Below, one piece after another: positions 27,071 to 58,993 of a stretch of 64,000 nt of DNA; the stretch's first letter is position 1, and each line of letters starts with the position of its first letter. The notes beneath the pieces are model-generated. The model was given only the letters and a program-made list of their open reading frames with translations, ran no database searches and had not been told where the DNA came from. Both the position numbers and the translations under genes were made by a program. Source of the stretch: Escherichia coli (GTDB lineage Bacteria; Pseudomonadota; Gammaproteobacteria; Enterobacterales; Enterobacteriaceae); the NCBI RefSeq assembly GCF_050320075.1, contig NZ_CP190018.1; one strand, 5' to 3'.

Positions 27071-28033
<963 letters not shown>

Positions 28034-50863: not shown

Positions 50864-51611
50864 GAGCAATCACTCCCAAAAAAAGATGATACGTCAGAGG
50901 ATATCGCCCCTGTTTTTGTGGCCAGGCCAGTTGCAATCGCTGCAACTGCGAACGCGTTAATATCCGCGGGTCGCGCCCTTCATGAAGATGCGTGGCACCG
51001 ATGCCTTTCAGCGAACGCATGGCACTGAGCGCATCATCAAACCACAGCGTGATGGGCTGAATATGATGTTGATAATGCACGCCGTTCAGTGACTGTTCGA
51101 TTTCATCTGGCGGTAAAAAGCGATTAGCATGCGGACGCTCGTCCACCGCCTGCCACGCCTGATGCAGTTCGGGTAACGATCCCTGCACCAGCGTGGTAAA
51201 CGCGACCACGCCTCCGGGGCGCACCACCCGATACAGCTCGCGGAGTGCCGTGGATAAATTACCGCACCACTGCACCGCGAGATTGCTCCATGCAAGATCG
51301 AAGGTTGCAGTCGCTAACGGCAGGGATTCGATATCTCCCGCCAGATAATGGTCTGCGGCATCCTTCTGGCGTGCCTGAACAAGCATTGGCGGCGAGAGAT
51401 CTAACGCCGTCACCTGCGCGTGACGTTCCCGCCAATGACGGCTCATCCAGCCAGGTCCACAACCCGCATCCAGTACGTGGGTGTATTTACGCTGTGGGAG
51501 CATTGCCAGTAAGACGTCAGCACTCTGGCGCTGTAGATCCGCATGTTGCTCATAGTGCGCGGCTGCCCGACCAAATGCCGCTGCAATGGCTTGTTTATTA
51601 ACCGTTGTCAT
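50856..51611 (-). CDS. bioC: Malonyl-ACP O-methyltransferase BioC
   Basis: 251 aa from ATG 51611; SAM-MTase motif LDAGCGPG. Confidence 0.9.
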
Positions 51612-52752
51612 GCAGCACCTCCAGCAGACTATCGATATCCTGCATTTCATGCGCTGCGGTTAGCGTTAAGCGCAGTCGCGCAGTACCAGCGGGTACGGTT
51701 GGCGGGCGAATCGCCGTGACCCAGCAACCTTGCTGGCGCAGTTTTTCTGCCAGTTGTAACGCACGGCTGTTATCACCGACGATCAATGGCTGGATGGCGC
51801 TCCATGAATCAGCAAGCGTAAACGGCAAATCCTGCACTCCGGCACGAAAACGCGTAATGAGTGCCGCCAGTTTTTCGCGCCGTGCATCACCCTCATCACT
51901 GCGAATGACCGCCAGCGACGCACGTAATGCCTGCGCCTGAGCGGGCGGCATACTGGTGCTGTAGATAAGATGGCGGGCGAATTGCAGCAGATAATCCGCC
52001 ACCGTATTGGAGCAAAGCACCGCTGCCCCGCTGACGCCAAATCCTTTGCCAAAAGTCACCACCAGCAATTCTGGTTTTACCTTTTGCAGCCAGCAGCTGC
52101 CACGCCCCTGCTCCCCGATAACGCCCGTGCCGTGGGCGTCATCGACCATCAACCAGCCATCGTGCTGTTGCGTTACCTGCTGGATTTCCTCCAGTGGCGC
52201 ACTATCGCCGTCCATGCTGAACACGCCTTCTGTCACTACCAGTTGCTGCCCCGGACAGGGGGAAGCAAGCAGTCGCGCCAGATGAGTGACATCGTTATGA
52301 GCAAAACGGCGAAGCGGCGACGGGCTTAAACTTGCAGCCTCCAGCAATGAGGCATGGCTAAGCCGGTCGGCAACAATACGGTCCTCTTTCGCCATCATCG
52401 CGGTAATAACTGCCTGGTTAGCGGCAAAACCAGAGATAAACAGCAGTGCCCGCGAATAGCCCAGCCACTCGGCCAGTTCTTCTTCCAGCGCCTGATGCGC
52501 CACGCTATAACCGCTGACGTGACCGGAGCCGCCGCTACCGACGCCAAATTGCTCCGCACTCAGCTTCCAGGCACGGATAATTTGCGGATGATGGCTTAAA
52601 CCTAAATAATCGTTACTGGAAAAGTTCAGATACTGGCGATCGTCCGCCACCAGCCAGCGTCCGGCTCCTTGCGCCACTGGATAACGGCGACGCAGGGCAT
52701 CGGCAGCACGCCGCGCATCGAGCGCCGCGTTGATTTTCTCCTGCCAGCTCAT
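51598..52752 (-). CDS. bioF: 8-amino-7-oxononanoate synthase BioF
   Basis: 384-aa PLP aminotransferase class II translation. Confidence 0.9.
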
Positions 52753-53789
52753 AGTGCTGCCGCGTTGTAATATTCGTCAGTGTCCGGGGTCATCAGCGCC
52801 TGCTCCAGACGCTGCTGTTGTTCGTTATCGCCCGCCAGCACGGCAGTTTGCTGCGGATTTAGCCCCAGTTTGCGGAACAGTTGCAGGTCTTTATCTTCTT
52901 CCGGATTCGGCGTGGTCAGCAGTTTGCAACCGTAGAAAATCGAGTTTGCGCCAGCCATAAAGCACATCGCCTGAGTCTGTTCGTTCATCTGCTCGCGTCC
53001 GGCAGAAAGGCGTACGTAAGAGGTCGGCATCATGATCCGCGCAACTGCAATGGTGCGAATAAAATCAAAGGCATCGACATCATCGTTATCAGCAAGCGGC
53101 GTGCCTTTCACCTTCACCAGCATGTTGATTGGTACGCTTTCCGGCGGCGTTGGCAGGTTTGCCAGTTGCAGCAATAATCCGGCGCGATCTTTTACTGTTT
53201 CGCCTAAGCCCACAATGCCGCCCGAGCAGACTTTGATCCCGGCGTCGCGCACTTTTTCCAGCGTATCGAGGCGTTCCTGATAGGTACGCGTGGTGATGAT
53301 ATTGCCGTAAAACTCCGGCGAGGTGTCGAGGTTGTGGTTGTAGTAATCCAGCCCGGCGTTCGCAAGGCGCTGCGCCTGAGATTCACTCAACGTACCCAGC
53401 GTCATACACGCCTCCAGCCCCATCGCTTTTACTCCCTGCACCATTTGTTCCAGGTAGGGCATATCGCGTTCGTGGGGATTCTTCCACGCCGCGCCCATGC
53501 AGAAGCGCGTCGATCCTGCCGCTTTCGCTTTGCGCGCCGACTCCAGCACCTGTTCAACTTCCATCAACCGCTCGGCTTCCAGCCCGGTTTTGTAGCGCGA
53601 GCTTTGCGGGCAGTATTTGCAATCTTCCGGACAAGCTCCGGTCTTAATCGACAGCAAAGTGCTGACCTGCACCTGACGTGGATCGAAATGCTGACGATGC
53701 ACCTGCTGCGCTTCAAACAGCAGATCCAGCAACGGTTTTTCAAATAATTCTGTGACTTGCGACAATGTCCAGCGTGGGCGGTGAGCCAT
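52749..53789 (-). CDS. bioB: Biotin synthase BioB (radical SAM)
   Basis: 346 aa; CPEDCKYC motif; ATG confirmed at 53787-53789. Confidence 0.95.
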
Positions 53790-53834
53790 AGGGCTTCTCC
53801 AAAACGTGTTTTTTGTTGTTAATTCGGTGTAGAC

Positions 53835-53869
53835 TCGTAAACCTAAATCTTTTCAATTTGGTTTACAAG
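53835..53869. promoter_or_regulatory. bio operator (BirA binding site) in the divergent bioA / bioBFCD control region
   Basis: Imperfect palindrome tcgtaaacctaaatcttttcaatttggtttacaag (gtaaacc ... ggtttac). Confidence 0.7.
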
Positions 53870-53875
53870 TCGATT

Positions 53876-55165
53876 ATGACAACGGACGATCTTGCCTTTG
53901 ACCAACGCCATATCTGGCACCCATACACATCCATGACCTCCCCGCTACCGGTTTATCCAGTGGCGAGCGCCGAGGGTTGCGAGCTAATTTTGTCTGACGG
54001 CAGACGCCTTGTTGACGGTATGTCGTCCTGGTGGGCGGCGATCCACGGTTACAATCACCCGCAGCTTAATGCGGCGATGAAATCGCAAATTGATGCTATG
54101 TCGCATGTGATGTTTGGCGGTATCACCCATGCGCCCGCCATTGAGCTGTGCCGCAAATTGGTGGCAATGACGCCGCAACCGCTGGAGTGCGTTTTTCTCG
54201 CGGACTCCGGCTCCGTAGCGGTAGAAGTGGCGATGAAAATGGCGTTGCAGTACTGGCAGGCCAAAGGCGAAGCGCGCCAGCGTTTTCTGACCTTCCGCAA
54301 TGGTTATCATGGCGATACCTTTGGCGCGATGTCGGTGTGCGATCCGGACAACTCAATGCACAGCCTGTGGAAAGGCTATCTGCCAGAAAACTTGTTTGCT
54401 CCCGCCCCGCAAAGCCGCCTGGATGGTGAATGGGATGAACGCGATATGGTGGGCTTTGCCCGCCTGATGGCGGCGCATCGTCATGAAATCGCCGCAGTGA
54501 TCATTGAACCGATTGTCCAGGGCGCAGGCGGGATGCGCATCTACCATCCGGAATGGTTAAAACGAATCCGCAAAATGTGCGATCGCGAAGGTATCTTGCT
54601 GATTGCCGACGAGATCGCCACCGGATTTGGTCGTACCGGCAAACTGTTTGCCTGTGAACATGCAGAAATCGCGCCGGATATTTTGTGTCTCGGTAAAGCC
54701 TTAACCGGCGGCACAATGACCCTTTCCGCCACGCTCACCACGCGCGAGGTTGCGGAAACCATCAGTAACGGCGAAGCCGGCTGCTTTATGCATGGGCCAA
54801 CTTTTATGGGCAATCCGCTGGCCTGCGCAGCAGCAAACGCCAGCCTGGCGATTCTCGAATCTGGCGACTGGCAGCATCAGGTGGCGGCTATTGAAGGGCA
54901 GCTACGCGAGCAACTTGCCCCCGCCTGTGACGCCGAAATGGTTGCCGATGTGCGCGTACTGGGGGCAATCGGCGTGGTCGAAACCACTCGTCCGGTGAAT
55001 ATGGCAGCGCTGCAAAAATTCTTTGTCGAACAGGGTGTCTGGATCCGGCCTTTTGGCAAACTGATTTACCTGATGCCGCCCTATATTATTCTCCCGCAAC
55101 AGTTGCAGCGTCTGACCGCAGCGGTTAATCGTGCGGTGCAGGATGAAACATTTTTTTGCCAATAA
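53876..55165 (+). CDS. bioA: Adenosylmethionine-8-amino-7-oxononanoate aminotransferase BioA
   Basis: 429 aa from ATG 53876 ([20 protein letters not shown]). Confidence 0.95.
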
Positions 55166-55223
55166 CGGGAAGTTAGCGTGAGGGTTTCTGGCTACACTTT
55201 CTGCAAACAAGAAAGGAGGGCTC

Positions 55224-55700
55224 ATGAAACTCATCAGTAATGATTTACGCGATGGCGATAAGCTGCCGCATCGTCATGTCTTTAACGGCATGGGTTACGA
55301 TGGCGATAATATTTCACCGCATCTGGCGTGGGATGATGTTCCTGTGGGAACGAAAAGTTTTGTTGTCACCTGCTACGACCCGGATGCGCCAACTGGCTCC
55401 GGCTGGTGGCACTGGGTAGTTGTTAATTTACCCGCGGATACCCGCGTATTACCGCAAGGGTTTGGCTCTGGTCTGGTAGCAATGCCAGACGGCGTTTTGC
55501 AGACGCGTACCGACTTTGGTAAAACCGGATACGATGGCGCAGCGCCGCCGAAAGGCGAAACCCATCGCTACATTTTTACCGTTCACGCGCTGGATGTAGA
55601 ACGTATTGATGTCGATGAAGGTGCCAGCGGCGCGATGGTCGGGTTTAACGTTCATTTTCACTCTCTGGCGAGAGCCTCGATTACTGCGATGTTTAGTTAA
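55224..55700 (+). CDS. ybhB: PEBP-family protein YbhB
   Basis: 158-aa translation; last chromosomal gene before the att site. Confidence 0.85.
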   Translation: MKLISNDLRDGDKLPHRHVFNGMGYDGDNISPHLAWDDVPVGTKSFVVTCYDPDAPTGSGWWHWVVVNLPADTRVLPQGFGSGLVAMPDGVLQTRTDFGKTGYDGAAPPKGETHRYIFTVHALDVERIDVDEGASGAMVGFNVHFHSLARASITAMFS

Positions 55701-55789
55701 TCACTCTGCCAGATGGCGCAATGCCATCTGGTATCACTTAAAGGTATTAAAAACAACTTTTTGTCTTTTTACCTTCCCGTTTCGCTCAA

Positions 55790-55804
55790 GTTAGTATAAA
55801 AAAG
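55790..55804. other. Lambda-type att core (attR junction): ttagtataaaaaagc
   Basis: Reverse complement of the 15-bp lambda core GCTTTTTTATACTAA, flanked on the ybhB side by bacterial-arm sequence cgctcaag. Confidence 0.85.
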
Positions 55805-55947
55805 CTGAACGAGAAACGTAAAATGATATAAATATCAATATATTAAATTAGATTTTGCATAAAAAACAGACTACATAATACTGTAAAACACAACATATGC
55901 AGTCACTATGAATCAACTACTTAGATGGTATTAGTGACCTGTAACAG
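55805..55947. promoter_or_regulatory. Lambda attP P-arm (Int arm-type, IHF, Xis, Fis site region)
   Basis: ~140 bp matching, as far as I can recall it, the reverse complement of the lambda P arm (...cgtaaaatgatataaatatcaatatattaaattagattttgcataaaaaacagactacataatactgtaaaacac...ctgtaacaga). Confidence 0.75.
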
Positions 55948-55950
55948 AGC

Positions 55951-55990
55951 ATTAGCGCAAGGTGATTTTTGTCTTCTTGCGCTAATTTTT
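55951..55990 (+). terminator. sib / tI-like intrinsic terminator distal to att
   Basis: ttagcgcaag ... cttgcgctaa hairpin followed by tttttt on + strand, in the position of lambda sib/tI. Confidence 0.6.
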
Positions 55991-56510
55991 TGTCATCAAA
56001 CCTGTCGCACTCCAGAGAAGCACAAAGCCTCGCAATCCAGTGCAAAGCTTTGTGTGCCACCCACTACGGCCCGCATAACCAGTAAGAAGATAGCAGTGAT
56101 GTCAAACGACGCAGCAGTCTTCTTTTCTTTCACACTTTCCCCCACCCAGCATACATACCTTTCTGCCACAGCTGAAATGAATGTCTATTATGAGCAAGGA
56201 GAGGAAATTCGTAATTGTCATCATCAATGGCGATTTGCTGGTACTATCTGTGTTAAGTAATAGGAAAACAAGTAACTGGAGAAAGATTTGATTTACACAC
56301 TATTATAGCAGTTAATAGTTTAAGCTATTGACACTTTAACTATTTTGCATAAAGTTAAACATAACAACCCCATAAATTGATAATGCAAGAGAGTACTGAA
56401 CTAAGTATTTTAGCTCTACCATATTGCCCAGGCAGTATAATATATGATACATTAAAAAATTAGATTTAATTTACTTAAACATCCTAATCACACTAAGAAT
56501 GAAGAAATAA

Positions 56511-57389
56511 ATGCTGTTTAAATATTGTCCTATTAATGAGTATTCAATTAAATCTCTAGTGGAAAACAAACTATATCTTAATCATCTCAACATGATGAAT
56601 GACAGTGCTGAAGGTTTTTGTAAGATAATAAGTGGTTTCCCAGATTATAATGAAAAAACTGAGAGATATGATTTGATAATAAAAACATGGTGTGGAGAGT
56701 CTGGCTGGCTACCTTCTGAATATGAATATAACGAATATATTGATTCAATGAGAGAACTGGAACCAAATGTCCCGCAATTGCTGGACTCTGCAAGGATATC
56801 ATGCTTTACGAATACGGCGTTAAACCCTACAATGTGGGCTCATTATGCTAACAACAGAACAGGTATATGTATAGAATTCGATCAAGACAAAATAAGAGAA
56901 CTAGAGGATATCTATATCTTTGACGTCAAATATAAAGATCGCCCTCCGACTATTGATACTGCAGTACTAACATTAATAGCTGATCAGGTGAACTATAATC
57001 ATGATGCAATTTATGATGATTATCAAGAAAAGTTCAAACATCTTTATGAACAAGCATTTGACGAGGGAAGAAATTTGCTTTTGGAAATTTACAATGGAAT
57101 ATTGGCAACTAAATCTCAAGAATGGTCTTATGAACAAGAAAAACGGCTAATATATATTTTATCCTTCTCACAAGAAGACAAATTGGCAAAAAAATATAAA
57201 ACTGGCATAAACATATCACTCCCTGAAGGATGCATTAAAAGTGTTATCCTAGGTGAGAAGACAAGTGAGCATGATAAAAAACTTATAGTTTCAGCTATAA
57301 AAAAACATTCTAAACACATTAAGTTGAAGAGAGCTACAATAACACAAGGCGAATATTTATTATCTATTCGTGATGAAGTTTTTAGCTGA
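56511..57389 (+). CDS. DUF2971-like protein of unknown function (prophage cargo)
   Basis: 292 aa; N-terminal MLFKY...L.ENKLYL...NDSAEG and central SCFTNTALNPTMWAHYANNRTGICIEF match what I recall as DUF2971 hallmarks; visibly AT-rich by eye. Confidence 0.6.
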   Translation: MLFKYCPINEYSIKSLVENKLYLNHLNMMNDSAEGFCKIISGFPDYNEKTERYDLIIKTWCGESGWLPSEYEYNEYIDSMRELEPNVPQLLDSARISCFTNTALNPTMWAHYANNRTGICIEFDQDKIRELEDIYIFDVKYKDRPPTIDTAVLTLIADQVNYNHDAIYDDYQEKFKHLYEQAFDEGRNLLLEIYNGILATKSQEWSYEQEKRLIYILSFSQEDKLAKKYKTGINISLPEGCIKSVILGEKTSEHDKKLIVSAIKKHSKHIKLKRATITQGEYLLSIRDEVFS

Positions 57390-57451
57390 TGGTATTATAA
57401 TCGAACAGATATTTTCTCCTAAGCGTTGCATTTATCCCACGGTAACATATT

Positions 57452-57490
57452 CATACTCAAATATCCTGCGACATGGAAGATTTGAGTATG
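57452..57490 (+). terminator. Hairpin (11-bp stem, 17-nt loop) downstream of the DUF2971-like ORF
   Basis: catactcaaat ... atttgagtatg inverted repeat 63 bp after stop; weak T tract follows. Confidence 0.4.
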
Positions 57491-57678
57491 GTTGTTCTTC
57501 ATGAGCGAAAAGCAGATGTTCGCGCTAAGGTATAATCAATTGGTTGTTAAATAGTTTAAACACAAGCAATGACTAATAAAACAATGCCACAAACCTTATT
57601 ATTTCTAAACTAGCATTTAGCTTTCAGACAATTTATTGATTGTTAATACATATTTTTAATATTTAATTATCATTTATT

Positions 57679-57689
57679 CCCCCCCCCCC
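57679..57689. repeat. Homopolymeric C11 tract
   Basis: 11 consecutive C at 57679-57689; a second C6 run at 57776-57781. Confidence 0.9.
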
Positions 57690-57882
57690 TCATGCTTATC
57701 AAATACTTCACAACAACGGAATTTTAATCCACATTTGTTATCTGTCTCTATCAGATTCATCCATACCCCCCTCCATTATTATTTAATTTCCAGATAAAAA
57801 TCTTCATCCTGTTATACATATAAAAAAGTGCAATATTTAAATAATGATAACAAATTATTGATTTTGCTCACATAAATTTTAT

Positions 57883-57911
57883 TGACAAGATGATAAGCTG
57901 ATATCTACACA
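57883..57911 (+). promoter_or_regulatory. Candidate sigma70 promoter for the zinc-ribbon ORF
   Basis: TTGACA at 57883-57888, 17-bp spacer, weak -10 tacaca; SD aagagg 5 nt before ATG 57935. Confidence 0.4.
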
Positions 57912-57934
57912 TTGTATTTTCTCAAGAGGAATTT

Positions 57935-58348
57935 ATGGCTGACATTGTCACTGGTTTGACCGCACTCAAAACCGCCTTTGATTTAGCAAAAGATATAAAA
58001 AATGCCACTGGCGCATACAATGATGCAGAAATGAGGCTTAAGTTTAGTGAGCTTTATAGCGCGCTATCTGAAGCCAAAATAGAACTGGCTGATACACAGC
58101 TAGAAATGTATGAACTAAAGCTGAAGATCGAAGAGTTGCAAGCTAAGCTTGATGCATCGGACGAGCTTGAATATAGGGAAAACGTATACTGGAGGGCCTC
58201 ACCTATCAATGGCAAACCAAACGGTCCTTTTTGCCCAAGATGTTATGAAAGTTCAGAGAAGAAGCTATCTTCAATGAGTCAAGTAACGGGGCATGCAACT
58301 ATTGCTGGAAAATACAAATGTAATACTTGTAACGCCTACGTTAGATAA
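57935..58348 (+). CDS. Small coiled-coil protein with C-terminal CxxC...CxxC zinc ribbon (prophage cargo)
   Basis: 137 aa; heptad-like LKFSELYSALSEAKIELADTQLEMYELKLKIEELQAKL; CPRCY ... CNTCNAY; good SD. Confidence 0.6.
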   Translation: MADIVTGLTALKTAFDLAKDIKNATGAYNDAEMRLKFSELYSALSEAKIELADTQLEMYELKLKIEELQAKLDASDELEYRENVYWRASPINGKPNGPFCPRCYESSEKKLSSMSQVTGHATIAGKYKCNTCNAYVR

Positions 58349-58684
58349 AAAGCCGTTATGGGGCTGGGACGGAGGCTCAAATCCTCTCGTGCAAAAATTC
58401 AGCTAAAACTTTTGTTCAGGAGACTCTGAAAGATACCAAGAAGTCTGCTGACGAGTGGTTTATTTACTAATTAGCACGTAAAATCTATTATGGCTGGAAA
58501 TCATTCAATACTCGTACTATCGAAAGTTCGCCAGCCGACAGCAAAACGCTATTGCATGGCAGGGATTGCAGGCCTCTCGATATTCGGTGCTAAGGATGTA
58601 TCAACACGGTTCAGCAGAACCCGATGCGTCTTCAAAACCGCAGCAACGATATCTCTTCCTCCGTTCCATTTACAGCCACCTTTT

Positions 58685-58993
58685 TCACCCTCGATTAACC
58701 AACAACCAGACCAGAAGACACGCTACCACCGGCACAGCAAAATCCATCAGGCTTGCCATATCCCACGCGCGTGGGTCAAAACCGCCCCACCACGGCATAT
58801 TCATTCGCTTGCCATGCCCGAACATTTCGATCCAGCGATATTCTGCCTGGGTGTGTTCACGCGCAATGAAGAACGTACAACCGGCTATCGCCCCGTAAGC
58901 CCAGTTCCCGGTAAAAAGACCAATCAGTAGCTGCGCAGCCACAGCACAAAGCGCATGAAGGAAAGGTGTTATATCCATTTTCATCCCACCCAA
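58685..58993 (-). CDS. Small predicted membrane protein (prophage, unknown function)
   Basis: 102 aa with two hydrophobic segments; several alternative Met starts; lies just downstream of the tail-fibre genes. Confidence 0.5.
   Translation of the reverse strand: MGGMKMDITPFLHALCAVAAQLLIGLFTGNWAYGAIAGCTFFIAREHTQAEYRWIEMFGHGKRMNMPWWGGFDPRAWDMASLMDFAVPVVACLLVWLLVNRG

Follow-up and report, generated by a model that had tools for sequence, protein, structure and literature searches.

A gene near the right end of a lambdoid prophage of Escherichia coli encodes a DUF2971 protein which, with a slightly better than even chance in our judgement, is an autonomous single-gene cargo providing anti-phage defence of the PDC-S31/Aristaios type, with a putative ADP-ribosyltransferase (ART)-like core. 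The gene is located in a stretch of 64,000 nucleotides of contig NZ_CP190018.1 (assembly GCF_050320075.1), referred to below as the window. The main support comes from the protein family, the similarity of the fold, the conservation of residues, the signature of selection, and the mobile-element and defence-island contexts of the orthologues. The features that constitute the gene and its mobile unit are as follows.

56511-57389, + strand: coding sequence (CDS) of the DUF2971 protein (292 aa, ATG start, WP_001550858.1); an intact open reading frame (ORF) and a RefSeq CDS
56219-57412, + strand: mobile single-gene cassette of 1.2 kb, comprising ~290 bp upstream, the CDS and 23 bp downstream; 80% nucleotide identity to the Enterobacter hormaechei island copy (L005) and to L006
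56832-57149, + strand: Pfam DUF2971 stretch (residues 108-213), defined by a hidden Markov model (HMM) match and by column conservation in a 77-sequence alignment
57132-57140, + strand: codons E208-Q209-E210, an ExE motif and putative ART motif III, where strand 210-216 begins; both glutamates occur in 77/77 sequences

The ORF is exactly as a sequence-only reading of this DNA had described it, and equals WP_001550858.1, whose RefSeq product name is "DUF2971 domain-containing protein". The chance of 292 stop-free codons at the local base composition is ~9e-11, so the ORF is not a product of chance. The same reading had called the gene isolated and, as estimated by eye, very AT-rich. Indeed, ORF-poor DNA (GC 29-30%) borders the CDS over 301 bp and 545 bp, and the G+C content of the CDS is 0.325 (0.259 at third codon positions), compared with 0.526 in the chromosomal part of the window and 0.485 in the remaining prophage. 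An index similar to the codon adaptation index gave 0.460 for this CDS versus 0.676 +/- 0.045 for the reference set of 30 chromosomal ORFs within the window (z -4.8), a value under that of the lowest reference ORF. Many rare codons occur in the CDS, including 16 ATA.

Membership of the DUF2971 family, which had been proposed in that reading, was confirmed by the Pfam model PF11185, matched over its whole length (i-E 1.1e-12, 49.6 bits, residues 108-213, model positions 1-89/89). The matched stretch includes M108-W109-x-H111-Y112, G118, V139-x-Y141, K201 and W205-x-Y207-E208-x-E210-x-R212. Two other models cover the full length of the protein, i.e. PDLC04990 of the PADLOC class PDC-S31 (E 9.5e-38, residues 1-288 versus model positions 8-257/259) and phrog_1762 (E 3.2e-44, residues 1-286), and the N-terminal LFKY and NDSAEG segments, previously suggested to be family segments, therefore do belong to the family. 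Four further PDC-S31 models also match, and at E <= 1 only PDC-S31 models were returned by PADLOC. Of 77 aligned relatives, 75 match Pfam DUF2971; a Pfam scan of all 77 identified this domain alone, with no DarT and no AbiGi, and a profile search of the PDB sequences produced 0 matches.

The statement that this family has no assigned biochemical function is outdated, since an ADP-ribosyltransferase prediction has been published (PMC12522546), the family member Aristaios has been validated (PMC11381338, PMC13064643), and PADLOC includes the class PDC-S31. The prediction places DUF2971 in the ART superfamily near DarT, AbiGi and Tox-ART-HYD1, and reports for it a weakly conserved His in motif I, an ExE motif, a conserved Tyr and two sites, between strands 1 and 2 and between strands 4 and 5, with large helical inserts (PMC12522546). 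The 145 PDC systems are candidates for phage defence that were encountered inside BREX, DISARM and type I restriction-modification (R-M) systems (bioRxiv 10.1101/2024.01.29.577857).

An exhaustive profile search detected 14,529 clusters (50% identity) at E <= 1e-3, of which only 26 were found at E <= 1e-30, and the family is spread across free-living bacteria. A word-indexed homology search returned a narrow enterobacterial clade with 55-82% identity, followed by a drop to ~32%. At the level of sequence, the window protein is thus placed in a small clade within a very large superfamily.

The AlphaFold2 model of the protein was built from the 77-sequence alignment, whose members are mostly 20-37% identical to the query and include the close clade. 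It has a predicted local distance difference test (pLDDT) value of 95.7 and a predicted template modelling (pTM) value of 0.89, with no segment under a pLDDT of 70. The modelled core is rich in beta structure; residues ~41-93 form a helical insertion, 150-198 a long helical hairpin and 217-292 a beta-alpha-beta C-terminal part. According to this model, the protein would be composed of an ART-like core, two acidic helical insertions (~41-93 and 150-198) and a small C-terminal alpha/beta domain. Its fold is predicted to resemble that of NAD-using ADP-ribosyltransferases such as DarT, and the following neighbours were found (the numbers are their fold-comparison scores).

Mycobacterium tuberculosis DarT: 8.9 (132 aligned residues)
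Thermus DarT: 8.2
yeast Tpt1: 8.1
Thermosipho DarTG: 7.7
E. coli DarT1: 6.6
KptA and the Rhs toxin TreX: 6.0 each
SopF and mouse Tpt1: 5.9 each

These ART-like neighbours agree with two published analyses, namely the superfamily assignment cited above (PMC12522546) and the ART fold found for Aristaios (PMC11381338). Foldseek revealed nothing significant in the PDB or BFVD.

The residues invariant in the 77 sequences are W109, G118, Y141, K201, E208, E210, R212 and G248, and those kept in at least 90% of them are N30, D31, M108, H111, Y112 (74/77), V139, W205 and Y207. An inspection of acidic and histidine residues, proposed in the sequence-only reading, thus yielded E208 and E210 as invariant and D31 and H111 as nearly so. 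Such a conservation pattern is that expected of an enzyme active site. The equivalence of the ExE motif to ART motif III is taken from the published analysis (PMC12522546), together with the position of the motif in the model.

Among 5,426 complete E. coli genomes, 45 contain the cassette. All copies are intact, located on the chromosome at this same locus and at least 99.9% identical; the shared locus and the near identity of the 45 copies fit a single prophage lineage. Across more divergent copies (dS, synonymous divergence, at least 0.38), the ratio of nonsynonymous to synonymous divergence (dN/dS) is 0.06-0.17, which indicates that the gene is maintained by selection. The AT-richness had been taken as a sign of recent horizontal acquisition. 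Horizontal mobility is well supported by the presence of the gene in six mobile-element contexts, but "recent" is not: the orthologues in Enterobacter, Salmonella, Pantoea and metagenomes have a G+C content of 0.33-0.35 whatever the host, and differ from the E. coli copy by a dS of at least 0.59. Low G+C content is therefore a long-standing, stable property of the cassette and does not show that it arrived recently.

Every orthologue that could be placed is mobile-element cargo. These orthologues (67-82% identity) reside in five other kinds of element, with differing neighbours:

68% identity, Salmonella integrative and conjugative element (ICE): between an EcoRII R-M system and Menshen NsnA/B/C (E 3e-20, 1e-94 and 1.5e-106)
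82% identity, CP4-57-like Enterobacter island: 4.7 kb from a Gabija-type pair of OLD-TOPRIM ATPase and UvrD helicase
80% identity, mobilisable island of 11-14 kb with integrase and relaxase: D12 and Dcm-type methyltransferases, an ABC-type ATPase and a McrA-like HNH protein
68% identity, Pantoea plasmid: adjoining EcoRII fragments
67-68% identity (sister clade), P2-like prophage: directly after the tail-fibre gene

No neighbour is common to all six contexts (the window and the five others), which fits a single-gene system. In keeping with a PDC-S31 system, the flanking genes differ in all six contexts and the shared DNA is limited to positions 56219-57412, and the orthologues are associated with defence genes (EcoRII, Menshen, Gabija, and methyltransferases with the ATPase and the HNH protein). 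The defence association of the window copy itself consists solely of an analogy of its slot with lambda ea59/ea31. Positions 56219-57412 are also the sole stretch shared with the Enterobacter hormaechei island copy (locus L005) and with locus L006, the flanks being unrelated; since the 80% identity is confined to this stretch, the mobile unit is a 1.2-kb cassette with its own upstream region.

Two genes or modules recur beside some orthologues. A co-oriented gene encoding a 143-aa DUF6530 protein is located 215-270 bp upstream in the Salmonella ICE and the P2-like prophage only (L002 7296-7727, L007 7354-7785); the copies from E. coli, Enterobacter, the mobilisable island and Pantoea lack it. 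In the sister clade it may act as an accessory or a partner. As a partner of the window gene it was rejected, because no remnant exists in the window (best tblastn E 2.6) and only two sister-clade loci contain it; it has no PADLOC match. EcoRII-type modules occur a few kb from the DUF2971 gene in three of the five contexts outside E. coli (L002 1129-3803; L010 6089-7519; L014/L015 8908-10107). They consist of an EcoRII endonuclease, a Dcm-type methyltransferase containing a DNA_meth_N domain, or both, and some are fragmentary. Their proximity may mean that the loci descend from one defence island, or that the genes are functionally linked.

More distant DUF2971 paralogues (23-33% identity) were detected in 430 plasmid records, 274 of them from Klebsiella and others from Enterobacter and E. 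coli plasmids, as well as on SSU5-type phage-plasmids. DUF2971 genes are therefore common as mobile-element cargo in enterobacteria, also outside this clade.

From these data we infer defence activity in E. coli and the use of NAD+, and likewise the target, the trigger and the promoter. In the lysogen, the protein would be produced at a low level from its own predicted promoter and would remain inactive without a dedicated antitoxin. Infection by another phage would activate it, with the helical insertions or the C-terminal domain possibly acting as sensor or autoinhibitor. The activated protein would use NAD+, with E208 and E210 as the putative catalytic residues, and would ADP-ribosylate a macromolecule needed for gene expression, either a nucleic acid or a component of the transcription or translation apparatus, the outcome being an aborted infection. 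The fold neighbours point to a nucleic acid as the target, whereas the acidity of the protein points to a protein target or a masked nucleic-acid site.

We propose more tentatively, and with considerable doubt, that the enterobacterial clade constitutes an antitoxin-free, self-restrained immune enzyme with an ART fold and a target different from that of DarT (RNA or a protein of transcription or translation), whose insertions or C-terminal domain would sense a phage cue, and that its site in the prophage is a slot in which immunity genes are swapped, ea59/ea31 being a Septu-like occupant.

The window contains bioF, bioB, bioA and ybhB of the E. coli chromosome (51598-55700), followed by the right end of the lambdoid prophage. 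The DUF2971 gene is situated in the non-essential b region of this prophage, ~700 bp beyond the attR core and just past a tI/sib hairpin. The features of this part of the window, apart from those listed above, are given below.

55791-55805, no strand: lambda att core TTAGTATAAAAAAGC (reverse complement of GCTTTTTTATACTAA), the attR junction between ybhB/bio and the prophage, read from the sequence
55787-56209, + strand: lambda-homologous P arm and start of the b region (megablast, 95.8% identity to lambda 27742-27319)
55944-55993, + strand: hairpin of the tI/sib type with a U6 run after it, in the orientation of the DUF2971 gene (predicted folding energy -25.5 kcal/mol, z -4.5; 0/200 shuffles as good)
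57390-57934, no strand: AT-rich spacer from the cassette to the next gene (GC 0.30, from sequence composition), with a poly-C tract at 57679-57689
57935-58348, + strand: ORF of 137 aa, with a coiled coil at the N-terminus and CxxC...CxxC at the C-terminus (phrog_1244 match)
58393-58470, + strand: C-terminal fragment of DinI (a pseudogene in the RefSeq annotation), at the inner edge of the variable cargo region

The junction is attR, since 55787-56209 matches the lambda att core (the annotated recombination core in lambda is 27724-27738), the P arm and the beginning of the b region. Similarity to lambda, and to all 50,697 phage records against which the window was compared by megablast, stops at 56209, and positions 56210-58560 have no nucleotide match in any of these records. 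The relatives of the cassette in sequenced phages are only distant (25-30% identity), in SSU5-type phage-plasmids and Vibrio elements. The hairpin at 55944-55993 was overlooked by a simple terminator scan; we take it to be the tI/sib of lambda, in view of the 95.8% identity of this segment to that phage. An Rfam scan of 55600-58800 revealed no known RNA except a sub-threshold IS009 match, outside the cassette (58592-58704, - strand, 41.6 bits versus a gathering score of 117, E 1.6e-7), which overlaps the start region of a 102-aa membrane-protein ORF.

On the + strand, the order of genes in the prophage is the DUF2971 gene, the 137-aa ORF, the DinI fragment, a tail-fibre-assembly fragment and a small membrane protein, and further inward the tail-fibre genes, lom and the tail-tip gene J. 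The 137-aa ORF has no Pfam match and no PADLOC defence match. Its homologues (n=40, in Citrobacter, Kosakonia, Pantoea, Klebsiella and Erwiniaceae) are almost all exactly 137 aa long and share 52-86% identity. In other lambdoid prophages the gene is present without DUF2971, near int/att and followed by SRAP, UmuD-like, DinI and tail-fibre genes; it therefore belongs to the prophage backbone and not to the cassette. As a partner or antitoxin of DUF2971 it was ruled out, because it is missing from all other DUF2971 loci and is a backbone gene elsewhere.

In related prophages the 137-aa gene is followed by intact SRAP-UmuD-DinI genes. The DinI and tail-fibre-assembly remnants of the window prophage (the latter a 28-aa remnant annotated at ~58549-58635) point, on this comparison, to a deletion in its b region, of which the DinI fragment would be the scar.

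The poly-C tract in the spacer varies in length: strain GTEN_23 has the 11 C seen in the window, S1-JOR-02-A has 9, and strains 144, RIVM_C039227 and ECSC054 have 10, with flanks otherwise identical among the compared strains. These differences are either slipped-strand variation or homopolymer assembly errors.

In lambda, the slot is occupied, at the same position and in the same orientation, by the non-essential pair ea59/ea31; the positional equivalent of 56210-57400 of the window is NC_001416.1 24509-26973 (L021 5510-7974). Ea59 matches Septu PtuA (E 5e-184) and PDC-M01A (E 3.9e-201), and Ea31 matches PDC-M01B (E 5.8e-113), the pair being an ATPase and an HNH nuclease. A full-text literature search produced no paper treating ea59/ea31 as a defence system. 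Other att-lambda prophages (L022-L025) diverge right after sib (~55995), at ~56058 or at ~56209, and carry other cargo in the slot, namely a sensor diguanylate cyclase in HS30-1 and the type III effectors NleD/NleH/NleC/NleB2 in O157:H7 and 14EC047. The slot is therefore a general position for exchangeable cargo. A defence role would suit it, and the idea that the slot proves such a role was rejected on account of the non-defence cargo. A gene for a 246-aa protein at the equivalent position of Citrobacter prophages was considered and is unrelated to DUF2971 (hhalign probability 0.1), with no PADLOC match.

Inspection of the DNA upstream of the CDS revealed the following candidate expression signals.

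56328-56355, + strand: sigma-70-like promoter candidate P1, TTGACA-16-TAAAGT (10/12), the best of its neighbourhood in a consensus scan
56314-56344, no strand: imperfect inverted repeat AATAGTTTAAG / CTTTAACTATT astride the -35 hexamer of P1 (repeat search, 91% complementary)
56424-56452, + strand: weaker promoter candidate P2, TTGCCC-17-ATACAT, read from the alignment and outside the scan output

The scan that returned P1 found 17 sites versus 11.8 +/- 3.8 expected from shuffles. At P1, the Enterobacter orthologue has an aligned -10 hexamer TATAAT and a degenerate -35, so it is the position rather than the sequence of this candidate that is conserved; at P2, the aligned Enterobacter sequence is TTGTCA-17-ATAAAT. 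The right arm TTTAACTATT of the inverted repeat is conserved in Enterobacter, and the repeat is a possible operator as judged from its sequence and placement. The terminator scan identified no intrinsic terminator, and the hairpin 3' of the stop codon is no better than shuffles (z -1.0). In strain ECSC054 (1 of the 45 carriers; L016 2207-3400), an IS5 element is inserted in the orientation of the gene at a CTAA site (56401-56404), 107 bp upstream of the start codon. It separates P1 and any att-side read-through from the gene.

The gene is co-directional with read-through from att, as had been noted before; this follows from the comparison of 55787-56209 with lambda, and int, xis, ea59 and ea31 of that phage share the strand of the gene. 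The related suggestion, that it could be expressed both by early-leftward phage transcription and from its own promoter, stands in part. It is plausible for the excised, circular phage, in which N-antiterminated leftward transcription could pass tI/sib into the gene, as into ea59/ea31 in lambda. It does not hold for the lysogen, where pL and int are at the other end of the prophage; expression there needs a promoter of the gene's own, which is predicted from the consensus and from its conserved position in the Enterobacter orthologue. Any read-through from pL to the DUF2971 gene would have to cross the hairpin at 55944-55993.

Several observations weigh against an ART-type defence function. 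Both the protein and the family are acidic (pI 5.41, family median 5.08, 71 of 77 members below 7), with the negative charge gathered in the two helical insertions, and this is unusual for a DNA- or RNA-binding enzyme. The canonical ART motif I is indistinct, its candidate residues K4 and H25 being present in 69/77 and 39/77 sequences, respectively. The PDC-S31 label denotes a bioinformatic candidate class defined through guilt-by-embedding, the link with Aristaios is at the level of a Pfam family of 14,529 clusters at 50% identity, and the b-region slot, with diguanylate cyclase or Nle effectors in other att-lambda prophages, is not specific to defence. It is possible, if unlikely, that the protein is a defence or toxic cargo other than an ADP-ribosyltransferase, in which D31, H111, Y141, K201, E208, E210 and R212 would serve NAD+ hydrolysis, a Tpt1-type phosphotransfer or nucleic-acid cleavage.

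Rather improbable is the view that the gene encodes an accessory enzyme of the lytic cycle, made as a delayed-early product by N-antiterminated read-through from pL after excision and modifying the host to favour phage replication. The model for such host-modifying enzymes is provided by the ADP-ribosyltransferases Alt, ModA and ModB of phage T4. An ART-like fold, the shared orientation with int/xis and the ea59/ea31 position would all suit this role, but the close orthologues reside on an ICE, a plasmid and non-phage islands that have no pL-type transcription, the cassette brings its own 290-bp upstream region everywhere, att is separated from the gene by the tI/sib hairpin, and the region is missing from all 50,697 phage records. 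We regard it as similarly improbable that the gene is a silent or selfish passenger, i.e. an H-NS-silenced orphan toxin or an addiction gene that hitch-hikes with no benefit to the lysogen. A G+C content of 0.29-0.33, typical of xenogeneically silenced DNA, the rare codons with 16 ATA among them, the IS5 insertion 107 bp upstream in one strain, and the restriction to one lineage (45/5,426 genomes, at least 99.9% identical) agree with such a passenger; the purifying selection across divergent copies (dN/dS 0.06-0.17) and the intactness of all 45 copies do not, and addiction would need an antitoxin, of which none is conserved. Very improbable, finally, is a secreted virulence effector acting as an ADP-ribosyltransferase on eukaryotic cells and carried as prophage cargo in the manner of the Nle effectors. 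O157-type att-lambda prophages do carry NleD/NleH/NleC/NleB2 in the same slot, and ~18% of DUF2971 proteins are predicted effectors, lpg1268 of Legionella pneumophila being one (PMC12522546). Against this, the neighbours of the orthologues are R-M, Menshen, Gabija and methyltransferase genes instead of secretion systems, the hosts include plant- and environment-associated Pantoea, the family is huge and extends across free-living bacteria, and no signal or secretion feature was seen, though no formal test was made.

The DUF2971 domain, the candidate-defence label and one validated member of the family are already known, and the gene does not represent a new kind of system. If active, it would be the first prophage-borne DUF2971 defence gene of enterobacteria, carried by a temperate phage whose backbone is the best understood, in a genetically tractable host. 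A compact native cassette of 1.2 kb in E. coli would offer a tractable entry to the chemistry, target and trigger of a family of more than 14,000 clusters. The locus also adds one data point each to two matters, the lambda b region by att as an exchangeable cargo slot and the Septu-like appearance of ea59/ea31.

The Tpt1/KptA RNA 2'-phosphotransferases, which are among the fold neighbours of the window protein, have no sequence similarity to it and possess a different set of conserved residues. Tpt1 is a housekeeping enzyme of tRNA splicing and RNA repair, and not a mobile cargo. DarT, the toxin of the DarTG system, which acts as a thymidine ADP-ribosyltransferase on single-stranded DNA, shares 5-10% identity with the window protein over the aligned residues, with no HMM or profile match. 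The window protein differs from it in two large helical insertions and an additional C-terminal domain, and in being acidic. A gene for the macrodomain antitoxin DarG is not adjacent: upstream there is non-coding lambda/att DNA, and downstream the 137-aa coiled-coil/zinc-ribbon gene. With no HMM match, no DarG neighbour, extra domains and an acidic character, the protein is not a member of the DarT family; it may nevertheless work like DarT.

The lambda proteins Ea59 and Ea31 are encoded at the same position and in the same orientation past att/sib, and also match defence models, but they form an unrelated two-gene pair of ATPase and HNH nuclease, so that the link is positional and not one of homology. 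With PDC-S31, the window protein shares a full-length match to PDLC04990, the single-gene organization and orthologues located by R-M and other defence systems. That class was defined by embedding in defence systems, whereas the window copy is found in a lambdoid b region.

Aristaios, a 316-aa protein of the Lactococcus plasmid pUCCL641_199 assigned to IPR021352/PF11185 (Grafakou et al. 2024, PMC11381338), is a validated single-gene system of the abortive infection (Abi) type that blocks phage transcription and protein production (PMC11381338, PMC13064643, PMC12967558). No Lactococcus was found among the plasmid tblastn matches listed or in the top organism counts, and ten clusters of ~310-aa proteins, among them ones from Vibrio, Providencia and Idiomarina, included none from lactococci. 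Aristaios has a Gram-positive host, a plasmid carrier and a demonstrated Abi phenotype, while the window protein is prophage-borne and a candidate for such a role; both are stand-alone DUF2971 proteins of ~300 aa carried by a mobile element.

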